63,946 nucleotides of DNA from an uncultured Candidatus Saccharibacteria bacterium (GCA_964390945.1 CAYMIV010000004.1:1-63946), one strand, 5' to 3'. Shown: positions 14,001 to 22,666, counted from the first letter of the stretch. The notes: generated by a model not told the origin, from the letters alone. A program made the numbers and translations.

Positions 14001-15148
14001 AACACAATCGCATTCTCATTTTTTCAACAGATGACCACCTCTATCCTGCGGGTGGGGCGGAGCAGGCAATGGGAAATATCACAGAGCGACTTCCCGATAT
14101 TCAGTTTGACCTCATCTGTGCGAAGCTGCGAAAAGGTGTTAAAAGTTTTGAGAGGATAAAAAATGTAAACATTTATAGAATGGGTTTTGGGATTCCCAAA
14201 ATCGACGGAATTATCCTTGCGCTCATCGGGCACATTGTTGCGCGGCGGCTTATGAAGAAATATCAATATGACCTTATCTGGTCAATCATGGCGAGCTATG
14301 GTGCGTTTGCAGCAGTGCGTGTAAAGAAGAAAACAGGTTTGCCATTTCTTCTTACACTCCAGGAAGGAGATTCGTTTGAATATATCTACAACAGAGTGAA
14401 ATATGTGCGTAGGCAGTTTAACGAAATTTTTGCCGTAGCGGATGGCATCCAGGCAATTTCACACTACCTTCTTAAGTGGGGTCGAGATATGGGATATAGA
14501 GGAAATTATGGAAAGGTTATTCCGAACGGAGTCGCAATTGAGGCTTTTGCACAGCCACGTTCGGCGGAGGATGTTCACCGTACCCGTGCCACATTCGGTT
14601 TCCCTGATAATGCCACAATTCTCTTTACGAGCTCGCGTCTTGAAAAGAAAAATGGTGTGAAAGACGTCATAGAGGCGCTGGCGCTTCTCCCTGACACAGT
14701 ATGTTTTGTCATTTGTGGAAGCGGTTCGCTGGAGGGTGAATTGAGAACGCTCGTTGAAAAGTACAATCTTCAGCAACGGGTCAAGTTCATGGGTTTCGTT
14801 GACCCGTCAGAATTACCGCTTCTCATGAAAGCGTCAGATATCTTCATTCGACCCTCTCTCACTGAAGGGCTCGGAAACGCATTTCTTGAAGCAATGGCAG
14901 CACGTATGGTGGTAATCGGGACTGCGGCTGGAGGCATTCCGGACTTCCTCACTGATGGGGAGACTGGGTTTGTGGTTGGCATTGAAGACCCCGACAGTAT
15001 CAGGAGCACCGTGCTCAAAGTTATTTCACTCGATGCTCATGCAAAAGAGGACCTGCTGCATCGTGCAGAGGAAATGGTTCGGGAAAGGTACGAATGGAAT
15101 TGCATCAGTCGCGAAATGGAAACACTCTTTAATGCACTTGCACCATGA
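13997..15148 (+). CDS. GT4-family glycosyltransferase
   Basis: ILIFSTDDHLYPAGGAEQ at the N-terminus. The C-terminal half has FIRPSLTEGLGNAFLEAMAARMVVIGTAAGGIPDF (EX7E region). There is an ATGA overlap with the upstream gene. Confidence 0.9.
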   Translation: MKHNRILIFSTDDHLYPAGGAEQAMGNITERLPDIQFDLICAKLRKGVKSFERIKNVNIYRMGFGIPKIDGIILALIGHIVARRLMKKYQYDLIWSIMASYGAFAAVRVKKKTGLPFLLTLQEGDSFEYIYNRVKYVRRQFNEIFAVADGIQAISHYLLKWGRDMGYRGNYGKVIPNGVAIEAFAQPRSAEDVHRTRATFGFPDNATILFTSSRLEKKNGVKDVIEALALLPDTVCFVICGSGSLEGELRTLVEKYNLQQRVKFMGFVDPSELPLLMKASDIFIRPSLTEGLGNAFLEAMAARMVVIGTAAGGIPDFLTDGETGFVVGIEDPDSIRSTVLKVISLDAHAKEDLLHRAEEMVRERYEWNCISREMETLFNALAP

Positions 15149-16347
15149 CGTCCGCAATTATTCTTGATAGTCATCTGAAGAGCGCGCTTTCTGCGGTGCG
15201 GTCACTCGGTGCGGCCGGAATCTTTGTCTCTGCCGGTGCGGAACGAGGTACCGCCATGGCGCTCCATTCAAAATATTCGAAAACGCGATTCATCTACCCC
15301 TCACCGCTTAAAGACACCGCAGGTTTCATTGGGGCGGTGAAAGAGGAGGCCATCCGAATGGCGAAACGGCCAGTCGTGTATGCTTTTTCCGATGCGACAT
15401 ACCTCACGCTCTTTGCGCACCGCGAGCGACTCGCCGACTCAATGATACTCGTGTTCCCTGAACTCTCGTCCGTTGAAATTGCATTCGATAAGGCAGCAAC
15501 CTATTCGCTTGCAAAAGTGTCTGGAATACCAACCATCACCACGTACACACCCGAATTAAAGGAGGAGGTCGAGCATCTCGGAACAACACTCACATTTCCT
15601 GCTGTGGTAAAACCGCGACGCAGCGTCGCCTGGGTAAACAATGTTGGAAAAACCGGTACGGCGTCGTTCGTTCACTCAAGGCGGCAACTCATAAAAAATT
15701 TTTTCGCTCTCAAAGAACGATTCGGCGAATCACCGCTCGTGCAGGATTTGCTCATCGGCGAGGAGTATGGCGTTGAAATGCTCGCCTACAAGGGTGTGGT
15801 ACACGCCATCGTCACGCACCACCGCATTCGCTCACTCTCACCAACCGGAGGCGCATCGGTCCTCAAGGAGACGGTTCAGTCGGGTGAACTAAAAAATTCC
15901 CTCGAAACGTATGCAAAAATTCTTGTCGAGAAACTCTCCTGGTCGGGCCCCATCATGGTGGAATTCAAGGTGGACAGCGATTCGCGCGAACCAAAACTCA
16001 TGGAGGTAAACGGTCGGTTTTGGGGCTCCCTCCCGCTCTCCGTTGCGGCGGGTGTTGACATGCCGCACCTCTATTACTATCTTGCGACGGGAAGCGGACT
16101 TCCCGAGAATGCAGTCACTGCGCGTGATGGGGTGATAACGCGGCACTTTCTTGGCGATATCCGGCACCTCCTTCGCGTACTTTTCGTTCCAAATGCGATG
16201 CGAAAAATTCTTTACCCGAAACGAAGCAAAGCGCTTGCTGATTTTTTCTCGATTCCACGGGGGACGAAAAGCGACGTGTGGTCCCGCTCTGACATGAAGC
16301 CCACACTCATGGAATTTGTTGATGTGTTTCTAAAAGCACTGCACTAA
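15145..16347 (+). CDS. ATP-grasp enzyme (COG3919-like carboxylate-amine ligase), copy 1
   Basis: FPAVVKPRRSVAW and MVEFKVD...KLMEVNGRFWGSLPLSVAAGVDMP are typical ATP-grasp motifs. It is a paralog of 18879..20036. Confidence 0.88.
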   Translation: MTSAIILDSHLKSALSAVRSLGAAGIFVSAGAERGTAMALHSKYSKTRFIYPSPLKDTAGFIGAVKEEAIRMAKRPVVYAFSDATYLTLFAHRERLADSMILVFPELSSVEIAFDKAATYSLAKVSGIPTITTYTPELKEEVEHLGTTLTFPAVVKPRRSVAWVNNVGKTGTASFVHSRRQLIKNFFALKERFGESPLVQDLLIGEEYGVEMLAYKGVVHAIVTHHRIRSLSPTGGASVLKETVQSGELKNSLETYAKILVEKLSWSGPIMVEFKVDSDSREPKLMEVNGRFWGSLPLSVAAGVDMPHLYYYLATGSGLPENAVTARDGVITRHFLGDIRHLLRVLFVPNAMRKILYPKRSKALADFFSIPRGTKSDVWSRSDMKPTLMEFVDVFLKALH

Positions 16348-16381
16348 TACCTCTCTTTATCGCACCGCTCGCTTTGCGCAC

Positions 16382-20800: not shown

Positions 20801-21592
20801 ATGAACGCATCACAATTCAAAAAAATCATATTTTCCCTCACTCGACTGATTACGTCTCCCTTACGAAGTCTTTCGTGGGTGCGTCGGGGGCACCTGCTTG
20901 TCGATCGTTCAATTATCGACACCACATATTGGTTTCAGGGGAATCTTTTACGGCGATCACTCATTGATGTGGTTCCGGAAACGAAGAAGGCGGAAGTTAT
21001 CTTACCGCGGGCATTCGACAGAACATTCGGCACTTCTATTACGACGCACGAGGCGTGCGCACTTGCCGCAATTGTGCGTGCACTGCATCCTGCAAAAGTT
21101 CTTGAAATTGGGACTTTTGACGGAAATACGACGCTCTTGTTTGCGGCAAATCTTGAAGGAGATGGTTCGGTCGCAACTGTTGATTTGCCCCCGGATTTTG
21201 ATTCAAAACGTGATCGCGGGAAGCTCGGGCACGATGGCGTAAAGATCAATTTGACCCCGCGCACTCTTGTCGCTGGGCAATATCGCGAAGATCCGCGAGC
21301 GCAAAAAATCACACAGATTTTTGGCGATAGCGCGTCGCTCGATTGGAAAACGTTCGGCGGTCCATTCAACCTCATTTTTATCGATGGGTGTCATACAGAG
21401 ATATATGTACGTACCGATTCACAAAACGCAGTTTCGGTGATTGCGCCCGGCGGCGCAATCGTGTGGCATGATTACGGAGTGATACCCGACGTGTCTCGTG
21501 CCGTTGACGCATTTGCACTTGAACACCCCGAGTTTACGATGTGTGTGATTGAGGGAACTCGTCTTGCGCTCGGTATTAGAAAGGCTAAGTGA
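20801..21592 (+). CDS. Class I SAM-dependent methyltransferase (Methyltransf_24 / O-methyltransferase-like)
   Basis: VLEIGTFDGNTTLLFA...VATVDLPPD...IFIDGCHTEIYV...GGAIVWHDY. Confidence 0.82.
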   Translation: MNASQFKKIIFSLTRLITSPLRSLSWVRRGHLLVDRSIIDTTYWFQGNLLRRSLIDVVPETKKAEVILPRAFDRTFGTSITTHEACALAAIVRALHPAKVLEIGTFDGNTTLLFAANLEGDGSVATVDLPPDFDSKRDRGKLGHDGVKINLTPRTLVAGQYREDPRAQKITQIFGDSASLDWKTFGGPFNLIFIDGCHTEIYVRTDSQNAVSVIAPGGAIVWHDYGVIPDVSRAVDAFALEHPEFTMCVIEGTRLALGIRKAK

Positions 21593-22586
21593 CATTCTCG
21601 GACAACTCAACAATGTCTTCGAGTGAAGCACTCCCCATGCCGTATGTCTCTTTGAGTATTTTGTAGTGAGCGAGTATTGCTTCGAGGTTTTTGAAGTTCC
21701 TCTCCTGGTTCACTCCGAAATTGTGCGGGTGCCACCAGAGATGGAACACCTCACCATTCTTTGCGGCATGTGTCATTGCTTTTTTTATCCTGCGCATGCG
21801 CAAAGGTTCAAGAAGTGCGAGGCGCGGCATGAATGGGCGGAGAAATCTGCTTGCGGGGATGTTACGTATGCGACCTTTCGTCGATGAGGGAAGCGGATAC
21901 GTGTGGTGTCCGCTTATGTTTATGTAGTGGTCGAGAAGGCGAAGTCCGCGGATAAAGAGCGATTGTTCCTTTTTTACTCGCGCGCGATAGAAAAAATGAT
22001 TCTCATTTCCACGATATGCGCGAATACCCTTTGACTCGCACACACGGAGTGCCTCCTCACTCCACTGGTTGCGAGGAAAGACCATGGTTGTGGTTGTGAC
22101 GCCATACGTCGAAGCAATCGTGTGGTGTGCATCAAGATCGGCAGCAAAAACACGCTCGTTATTCATGTCACCGTCAATGCAATAAAAATGCGAGAAGGTG
22201 TGGTTTCCGATATGCTGATGCGGTGTTGCAAGAATTGCTTCGACCAACTTCTGTCCGAAGTGGTACGGGTCATCTGCTTCACTGTCGCCAATTACGTCCG
22301 TTTCGATATGGTGGTATGTCGATATGCGCGCGTCTTTGTATTTCGGTCTCAGTTCTTTCGGTGGGAGGAGCGACATGAGTCCAGCCCTGCTTCTCGCCAT
22401 GAGCATCCCAACCGTTGCCCATGTCGCGTGAATGTCGTACTGTCTGAAGAGTTCGAGCATTCGAGGAATTGCGGTCCGCTCACCGAGAATGTTCGCACCA
22501 TATTCTTGAAGCGTTTGTACGTCAAACATGCCCCAAAAAAGCTCAAAATCCAGTGTGACAACAAAATACCCATTCTTGCGTTCCAT
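21585..22586 (-). CDS. Polysaccharide deacetylase (CE4-like), copy 2
   Basis: See copy 1 for the motifs. ATG 22586 (MERKNGYF) is preceded by TATAGT 6 nt upstream. The ORF track starts at TTG 22616. The 3' end overlaps the convergent methyltransferase gene by 8 nt. Confidence 0.82.
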   Translation of the reverse strand: MERKNGYFVVTLDFELFWGMFDVQTLQEYGANILGERTAIPRMLELFRQYDIHATWATVGMLMARSRAGLMSLLPPKELRPKYKDARISTYHHIETDVIGDSEADDPYHFGQKLVEAILATPHQHIGNHTFSHFYCIDGDMNNERVFAADLDAHHTIASTYGVTTTTMVFPRNQWSEEALRVCESKGIRAYRGNENHFFYRARVKKEQSLFIRGLRLLDHYINISGHHTYPLPSSTKGRIRNIPASRFLRPFMPRLALLEPLRMRRIKKAMTHAAKNGEVFHLWWHPHNFGVNQERNFKNLEAILAHYKILKETYGMGSASLEDIVELSENVT

Positions 22587-22666
22587 GTGCCTACTATACC
22601 CCAGTTTTAAAGGCAAAACAGCGTATCCTGCGTCAGTTTCTGTGTGTTAAAGTAACTGTCGTTTCC

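Follow-up and report, generated by a model that had tools for sequence, protein, structure and literature searches.

Two diverged copies of a widespread deacetylase, ATP-grasp ligase and phosphatase cassette in a glycan locus of an uncultured Candidatus Saccharibacteria bacterium: a candidate system for amino-sugar modification

The DNA analysed was a stretch of 63,946 nucleotides (nt) from an uncultured Candidatus Saccharibacteria bacterium (GCA_964390945.1, CAYMIV010000004.1:1-63946), referred to here as the window. It carries two genes each for an ATP-grasp ligase (AG1 and AG2), a PHP-family phosphoesterase (PHP1 and PHP2) and a deacetylase of the CE4 type (CE4a and CE4b) (Table 1). A reading made from the sequence alone (the sequence-only reading) had proposed that these genes form two triads of an undescribed glycan-tailoring module. 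The six open reading frames (ORFs) were found where that reading had placed them, every motif quoted for them was present in the translations, and BLASTP comparisons established the three paralog pairs (E values of 1e-63 for the ATP-grasp proteins, 3e-42 for the PHP proteins and 1e-25 for the deacetylases). Pfam scans covered 46 ORFs of the window, with cutoffs of 29.1 bits for PF15632, 26.4 bits for PF02811 and 23.1 bits for PF01522. Both ATP-grasp proteins, PHP1 and CE4b were assigned to their expected families; PHP2 scored just below the cutoff, and CE4a had no Pfam match of its own, although many of its database homologs carry PF01522.

Table 1. Features of the two cassettes and other genes of the window
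Feature	Position (nt)	Strand	Evidence or remark
GT4 glycosyltransferase	13997..15148	+	Pfam Glycos_transf_1, E 1.9e-35; stop overlaps AG1 start (ATGA, 4 nt)
AG1, ATP-grasp carboxylate–amine ligase, set A	15145..16347	+	PF15632, 52.0 bits
PaaX_M / Cas2-like domain protein, between AG1 and PHP1	16422..17000	+	PF20803, E 1.9e-19
PHP1, PHP-family metal-dependent phosphoesterase, set A	17110..17910	+	PF02811, 35.8 bits
CE4a, divergent CE4-type deacetylase, opens cassette B	17945..18898	+	26% identical to its paralog CE4b; homologs with PF01522
AG2, ATP-grasp ligase, cassette B	18879..20036	+	PF15632, 48.5 bits; 32% identical to AG1 across 394 aa
PHP2, PHP phosphoesterase, cassette B	20033..20779	+	PF02811, 25.4 bits; 34% identical to PHP1
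Class I S-adenosylmethionine (SAM) methyltransferase after PHP2	20801..21592	+	Methyltransf_24, E 1.9e-14
CE4b, CE4 deacetylase, set A; convergent with methyltransferase	21585..22586	-	PF01522, 36.8 bits
DUF4015 putative glycoside hydrolase	8281-9573	+	upstream of glycan locus
TrwB/TraG/HerA-like coupling-protein ATPase	9945-11939	+	664 aa; directly before glycan locus
YvcK/CofD-related protein	22667-23677	+	divergent from CE4b
Sulfotransferase	28458-29303	+	second tailoring sub-cluster
Canonical CE4	29291-30130	+	second tailoring sub-cluster
AsnB-type glutamine amidotransferase	30118-31950	+	second tailoring sub-cluster
UDP-sugar dehydrogenase-like gene	31980-32957		within glycan locus
B12-binding radical SAM enzyme	37035-38570	+	within glycan locus
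ORF region without Pfam match	41778-42920	-
ORF region without Pfam match	46725-50333	+
ORF region without Pfam match	56478-58247	+

Cassette B, which consists of CE4a, AG2, PHP2 and the methyltransferase gene (17945-21592), has the canonical gene order and is translationally coupled. The CE4a and AG2 genes overlap by 17-20 nt, and the AG2 and PHP2 genes share the sequence ATGA at 20033-20036; this 4-nt overlap and the methyltransferase gene after it had been picked out by the sequence-only reading. The same reading had extended the module to a TTG at 22616. Gene calls place the start of CE4b at an ATG at 22586, which is most likely the correct one. Neither CE4a nor CE4b shows an N-terminal hydrophobic segment or signal peptide in its translation.

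Comparison with related genomes led to a different grouping of the genes, as the triads had been mis-paired. A single set of AG1-type, PHP1-type and CE4b-type genes was detected in five Patescibacteria loci (L012, L017, L041, L048 and L066), with identities to the window proteins of 59-67%, 57-64% and 64-65%, respectively, and with the CE4b-type gene immediately following the PHP gene but oriented oppositely. In L017, an ortholog of the GT4 gene (E 9e-196) overlaps the start of the ATP-grasp gene. Because this set occurs alone and is co-inherited in related Patescibacteria genomes, AG1, PHP1 and CE4b were assigned to one set. On these comparisons, set A is read as GT4–AG1–PaaX_M–PHP1 followed at a distance by CE4b on the minus strand, with cassette B sitting between PHP1 and CE4b. 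Close orthologs of AG2, PHP2 and CE4a were present only in L001-L003 (54%, 55% and 44% identity), where the methyltransferase gene after PHP2 is also kept. One relative retains the whole arrangement, including both triads, with an ATP-grasp identity of 54%, and the closest genome loci are labelled Candidatus Saccharibacteria or Paceibacterota, which makes a member of the Patescibacteria the most likely host.

Two further features of set A were observed. The PaaX_M protein has 192 aa and a hydrophobic N-terminal segment and scored 30.5 bits with the cas2 model TIGR01573; its gene also lies between the ligase and PHP genes in L048 and L066 (E about 1e-85) and elsewhere within the locus in L001-L003, and its product is probably a regulator, which may belong to the cassette. 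PHP1-type proteins have a conserved helical C-terminal tail outside the catalytic barrel (PHP1 residues ~219-266, window ~17765-17907) with the pattern SV..IVLGKFVNK.LA..GLSLPKSLK..IRR.L, which could be a membrane- or partner-docking helix.

The association of the three families was examined in the best 80 of at least 596 ATP-grasp loci, with one genome per species. These loci came from Gammaproteobacteria, Nitrospirota, Acidobacteriota, Zixibacteria, Ignavibacteria, Gemmatimonadota, Patescibacteria, Thermoplasmata, Halobacteria, Micrarchaeota, Aenigmatarchaeota and other groups. Using hidden Markov models iterated on the loci themselves, a CE4 gene was detected within 3 kb of the ATP-grasp gene in 57 loci and a phosphatase gene in 55, of which 25 encoded a PHP protein and 30 an LMWPc protein. 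Both genes were found in 41 loci and neither in 9. Pfam scans of the immediate neighbours detected Polysacc_deac_1 upstream of the ATP-grasp gene in 34 of 71 loci and, downstream, PHP in 14 and LMWPc in 12 of 73. The usual layout was CE4, ATP-grasp and phosphatase on a single strand, with gaps of -64 to +130 nt and frequent overlaps. With the farther flanks of the same loci as the control, the density of CE4 genes was 0.235 per kb within 1.5 kb of the ATP-grasp gene versus 0.017-0.044 per kb beyond, and that of phosphatase genes was 0.249 versus 0-0.004 per kb. Chance paralogy or adjacency was ruled out by the BLASTP E values and by this 5- to 60-fold local enrichment. The proposal that the three families work as a unit, first argued from their duplication within one locus, is thus upheld by co-occurrence across bacteria and archaea and by the fusions described below, which is much stronger evidence than local duplication.

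The ATP-grasp family itself was large, with more than 4,600 matches in a word-indexed search and, in an exhaustive search of 50%-identity clusters, 705 clusters at E <= 1e-30 and 4,177 at E <= 1e-10. A plasmid search returned haloarchaeal homologs named just 'ATP-grasp domain-containing protein' or 'carboxylate--amine ligase', in contexts that were uninformative.

The neighbours of the sampled loci were always genes of glycan assembly (GT4, GT2, Wzy_C, flippase and epimerases). The window was consistent with this pattern, since it holds one very large glycan locus that runs from about 12.5 kb to at least 63.7 kb, downstream of MurD and MurC. About ten GT4 genes, together with GT2 and GT9 genes, are present in this locus, as are epimerases, the UDP-sugar dehydrogenase-like gene, the AsnB-type amidotransferase, a CMP-sugar synthetase, numerous methyltransferases and a sulfotransferase whose gene overlaps that of a third CE4 protein, of the canonical type. 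The module is therefore located in glycan-assembly loci.

Fusion proteins provided a second line of evidence for a unit. A single chain of 969 aa comprises CE4, ATP-grasp and PHP domains (L011, P0369). Partial fusions were found of CE4 with ATP-grasp (P0393 and P0400), of ATP-grasp with PHP (P0094, P0069, P0401 and P0456), of ATP-grasp with LMWPc (L021, L039, L058 and at least six others) and of ATP-grasp with GT4 (P0410 and P0490), and in L007 a PHP domain is fused to a PIG-L deacetylase and translationally coupled to the ATP-grasp gene. As one chain contains an ATP-using domain together with the other two, all three activities are placed in the cytoplasm, in agreement with the absence of signal peptides from the window deacetylases, and the GT4 fusions and overlaps indicated that the module is coupled to a glycosyltransferase. 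Among the further architectures were a 565-aa protein with a C-terminal M19 dipeptidase-like segment after ATP-grasp (P0435) and a 1031-aa protein in which an unknown N-terminal region of 430 aa precedes ATP-grasp and LMWPc (P0444). Proteins of ~620 aa with a C-terminal LMWPc domain are encoded beside the ATP-grasp gene in L071 (11218-13092) and L080 (11288-13144), the same loci having a BY-kinase-like P-loop protein.

The coupling to GT4 and the PIG-L fusion raised the possibility of a pathway resembling that of mycothiol or bacillithiol. In mycothiol synthesis, MshA, MshA2, MshB and MshC act in the order GT4, phosphatase, deacetylase and ATP-dependent ligase. By analogy, a GT4 would place N-acetylglucosamine (GlcNAc) on a phosphorylated acceptor, after which a phosphatase and a deacetylase would act and the ATP-grasp enzyme would add an amino acid, giving a small glycoside, glycolipid head group or primer and not a decoration of a repeat unit. 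The four activity types of the cassette correspond to the Msh order, the GT4 gene of the window overlaps that of AG1, fusions of GT4 to ATP-grasp occur elsewhere, and the fusion of PHP to PIG-L, the MshB/BshB family, agrees with consecutive phosphatase and deacetylase steps. The window GT4 did score against the BshA and MshA models, but weakly, its 96 and 58 bits being far below the respective cutoffs of 274 and 462. Furthermore, no ligase of the MshC or BshC type was present, the domains of the triple fusion follow the order CE4, ligase and phosphatase, and Wzy, flippase and numerous glycosyltransferases mark the loci as typical of polymer synthesis. Membership in such a pathway was rejected, as the window deacetylase is of the CE4 and not the PIG-L type and the ligase is an ATP-grasp enzyme, and a similar route to a small product was considered distinctly improbable.

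Two members of the cassette are subject to non-homologous replacement at a fixed position, PHP by LMWPc and CE4 by PIG-L. These swaps indicated that the requirement is for an activity, namely, that of a phosphomonoesterase or a de-N-acetylase, and not for a fold. The sequence-only reading had treated PHP as a fixed member of the triad. Since the unrelated LMWPc takes its place in 30 of the 80 loci, the defining third activity is that of a phosphomonoesterase rather than PHP chemistry as such.

The identity of the interchangeable phosphatases also suggested a regulatory role, in which they would belong to the system controlling polysaccharide export and polymerisation and act, like Wzb (LMW-PTP) or CpsB (PHP), as phosphotyrosine phosphatases on a tyrosine kinase or on the ATP-grasp enzyme or glycosyltransferase and not on a small molecule. 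In capsule loci, the bacterial tyrosine kinases are known to be dephosphorylated by two families, LMW-PTP and PHP. The idea is attractive because exactly these families alternate in the same slot of the cassette, and the best scores of the LMWPc domains were indeed with Wzb/Etp models. A BY-kinase-like P-loop protein was also detected in L071, L080 and L089. However, these were the only 3 of the 80 loci in which a relaxed motif heuristic of uncertain sensitivity found a BY-kinase (0 by a strict regular expression), and Pfam detected a BY-kinase domain in 0 of the 46 window ORFs scanned. The PHP form is common in archaea and in Patescibacteria (candidate phyla radiation bacteria). For the window PHP proteins, no CpsB family match was obtained with Pfam, and the listed Foldseek matches of PHP1 were led by TM0559, BVU_3505 and RNase AM, with CpsB structures not among them. 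Covalent fusion to the ligase and deacetylase, moreover, points to consecutive metabolic steps. Regulation of this kind was judged very unlikely.

Alignments were inspected for loss of ATP-grasp catalytic residues or PHP metal ligands, which would have argued against the module, and no such loss was seen. In a 20-sequence alignment that included AG1, the invariant ATP-grasp residues were K153, E267, E281, N283 and R285 (AG2 numbering), and the ATP-binding lysine, the E-x-N Mg2+ ligands and the catalytic arginine were all present. Alignment of the PHP proteins with both window paralogs gave the invariants H8, H10, E40, H41, E72, H79, H113, D170 and H172, and PHP2 retains each invariant metal-ligand column. 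The CE4 subtype has D16, E18, H120, H124, H266 and a P-R-N region as invariants; its first motif is D16-x-E18 where the classical motif is D-D, and judged from these residues it is likely to have deacetylase activity. The LMWPc domains, a family that occurs in the other genomes and not in the window, matched PF01451 with E values of 1e-20 to 1e-37 and had the CxGNxxRS / CX5RS loop in 33 of 33 domains and an acid-loop DP near position 110-120 in 32 of 33.

AlphaFold2 models of AG2 and PHP1, both with a pLDDT of 91, had the ATP-grasp fold and the PHP (beta/alpha)7 fold, respectively. The nearest structure to AG2 was 2pn1, named 'carbamoylphosphate synthase large subunit, split gene' (Foldseek E 5e-18), followed by biotin carboxylases, PylC and L-amino-acid ligase (E about 1e-16 to 1e-18). 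For PHP1, the nearest structure was 2anu (TM0559, PHP family; E 3e-12), followed by BVU_3505, RNase AM and PsfC. A sequence search of solved structures returned weak matches to 2pn1 and 2anu alone and none for CE4. These two closest solved structures, both from structural genomics, have 18-21% identity to the window proteins and no known function, and the fold matches therefore provided no information on substrates.

A ligase acting together with a phosphatase has a precedent in the HS:2 capsule of Campylobacter jejuni. There, the ATP-grasp domain of Cj1438C, which is fused to a glycosyltransferase, amidates glucuronate with ethanolamine phosphate or serinol phosphate (PMC12409886, PMC11800379), and chain extension by the next glycosyltransferase is possible only once the phosphatase Cj1435 has acted (PMC12409886). 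The window cassette resembles this system in the ATP-grasp decoration of a sugar during cytoplasmic chain assembly with a dedicated phosphatase, and in the coupling of ligase to glycosyltransferase, which takes the form of a GT2–ATP-grasp fusion in Cj1438 and of ATP-grasp–GT4 fusions or overlapping genes in the cassette. In contrast, the ATP-grasp enzyme is TupA-like in C. jejuni and PF15632/COG3919-like in the cassette, the phosphatase is of the HAD type in the former and PHP or LMWPc in the latter, and the Campylobacter system has no deacetylase whereas CE4 is conserved in the cassette. The reactive group on the sugar is a carboxylate in C. jejuni, and the conserved CE4 suggests an amine in the cassette. 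As the C. jejuni enzymes are from other families, the resemblance is one of mechanism and not of membership.

An equivalent uronic acid amidation was considered, in which the ATP-grasp enzyme would activate the C6 carboxylate of a uronic acid in the glycan and attach a phosphorylated amine such as ethanolamine phosphate or serinol phosphate, the phosphatase would dephosphorylate the product and CE4 would act on a neighbouring residue or in a separate step. This explanation accounts directly for the phosphatase, and its sequence of ligase then phosphatase has been established experimentally in the HS:2 capsule. The window also encodes a UDP-sugar dehydrogenase-like protein and an AsnB-type amidotransferase, and DegT-like pyridoxal phosphate enzymes are present within 5 kb in 30 of the 80 loci. 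However, the presence of DegT-like genes did not follow that of the phosphatase, and neither ATP-grasp protein belongs to the TupA-like amidoligases, the family of Cj1438C and WemR, as there was no PF14305 match at E <= 0.01. Furthermore, CE4 is left without a role, even though its association with the ATP-grasp gene equals that of the phosphatase and CE4–ATP-grasp fusions exist. Uronic acid amidation was accordingly regarded as unlikely.

We tentatively favour, at slightly less than an even chance, the interpretation that a widespread cassette for modifying an amino sugar during cytoplasmic assembly of a surface glycan is present in the window in two diverged copies. In the scheme that follows, we infer the substrates, the sequence of steps and the target of the phosphatase. 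A glycosyltransferase, often the adjacent GT4, would add an N-acetyl-hexosamine to a growing and probably lipid-linked glycan, and the CE4 enzyme, lacking a signal peptide, would strip the N-acetyl group. The ATP-grasp enzyme would then activate a carboxylate as an acyl-phosphate and form an amide with the freed amine. One of the ligation partners would be phosphorylated, for example, a phospho-hydroxy-acid or phospho-amino-acid, and the phosphatase (PHP here and LMWPc elsewhere) would remove the phosphate, which would make the step irreversible and allow the next transferase to use the product. The methyltransferase of cassette B may cap the new group. The two cassettes would install two different residues or two different acyl groups. 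Hydrolysis by PHP of the acyl-phosphate intermediate of the ligase itself would be futile and is unlikely.

Several observations weigh against this scheme. The phosphorylated partner is an assumption, because a plain carboxylate–amine ligation needs no phosphatase. LMW-PTP-type enzymes favour aryl or acyl phosphates over alkyl phosphates, a preference that poorly matches a phospho-serine-like partner. The PHP–PIG-L fusion of L007 fits a phosphatase acting before the deacetylase as well as it fits a ligase acting before the phosphatase. CE4 occurred without a phosphatase in 16 of the 80 loci and a phosphatase without CE4 in 14, some of the contigs being incomplete. Lastly, many of the canonical CE4 neighbours have an N-terminal hydrophobic 'YYSG' helix. 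In those encoded upstream of ATP-grasp (L013, L019, L022, L038, L043, L079, L090 and others), a hydrophobic or amphipathic N-terminus, 'LxxxLYYSG', is followed by 'LMYHRV'; in sequence, the former segment looks like a membrane anchor and bears on the site of deacetylation. We are much more confident that the three genes form one glycan-tailoring unit than we are in this chemistry.

A broader possibility, which we consider rather improbable, is a so far unrecognised pan-prokaryotic pathway that installs a new class of N-linked, phosphate-derived acyl substituents on surface glycans, with the ATP-grasp enzyme and the interchangeable PHP or LMW-PTP forming a ligate-then-dephosphorylate checkpoint that gates chain extension. 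In a more radical version of this idea, the ATP-grasp enzyme would modify the sugar or a protein to give a labile phospho-intermediate, either N-phosphoryl or acyl-phosphate, which would be resolved by phosphatases that depend on Cys or on metal.

The general logic of amino-sugar modification favoured above has known counterparts. NodB (CE4) and MshB (PIG-L) are cytoplasmic de-N-acetylases that free the amine of glucosamine for acylation by NodA or MshC, respectively, and the mycothiol pathway also has a GT4 and a phosphatase. NodA is an acyltransferase and MshC a tRNA-synthetase-like ligase, the products being a lipochitooligosaccharide and a small thiol. These systems share with the cassette a deacetylation followed by re-acylation but differ from it in that the acylation does not involve an ATP-grasp enzyme and the products are not surface polymers. 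The match to the NodB model (E 2e-3) was far below its cutoff, and homology was shown no further than the level of the CE4/PIG-L superfamily. A pairing of a deacetylase (TIGR03006) with an amino-acid-adding, FemAB-like enzyme (TIGR03019) is likewise known from XrtA/PEP-CTERM loci. Many of the Nitrospira and Acidobacteriota triad loci were of this type, with FemAB at 405 bits (cutoff 260) and PEP_O_lig_1, but the cassette also occurs in archaea and in non-XrtA contexts, and the scans made detected no XrtA-specific marker in the window. A further lead, that AglU attaches threonine to archaeal N-glycans, was not confirmed by the literature search.

In agreement with the view of the sequence-only reading that no characterised pathway is defined by this gene set, no NCBIfam model, close PDB entry or searchable paper was found for the triad. 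The triad proteins, including the Nitrospira XrtA/PEP-CTERM examples, scored below every cutoff of the curated NCBIfam models, and their source annotations were generic ('ATP-grasp domain-containing protein', 'carboxylate--amine ligase', 'predicted metal-dependent phosphoesterase TrpH' and 'polysaccharide deacetylase family protein'). A description of the module was not found in the searchable full-text literature, an earlier and purely computational mention remaining possible. Overall, the folds of the enzymes and the underlying logic are known ones; their assembly is undescribed and widespread.

Other genes in and around the glycan locus were also noted. The sulfotransferase, canonical CE4 and AsnB-type amidotransferase genes overlap and form a second tailoring sub-cluster (28458-31950, plus strand); sulfotransferase and canonical CE4 neighbours are present in L001-L003 too. 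The YvcK/CofD-related protein has orthologs 5-9 kb from the triad in L041, L048 and L066. A link through this protein to F420 biosynthesis was ruled out, as it scored 289.6 bits with TIGR01826 (YvcK/CofD-related subfamily) versus 37.6 bits with the F420 CofD model. An ATPase similar to the coupling-protein ATPase before the window locus also precedes the locus in L003. The window locus contains a B12-binding radical SAM enzyme, and in the unrelated locus L007 the gene of such an enzyme (6127-7791) directly precedes that of the ATP-grasp protein. Four long ORFs (603, 595, 589 and 380 aa), which lie within the last three regions of Table 1, had no Pfam match at E <= 1e-3 and may encode membrane components still missing from the locus, such as a polymerase or flippase.

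The presence of two diverged cassettes in one locus indicates that the cassette moves and diverges as one unit. The chemistry of the surface glycans of uncultured lineages such as Patescibacteria, DPANN archaea, Nitrospira and Acidobacteriota is almost unknown, and a conserved cassette would point to a common modification for which annotation at present gives just three generic names. The fusions and the exchange of two unrelated phosphatases also offer a new ATP-grasp/phosphatase pair for glyco-engineering.

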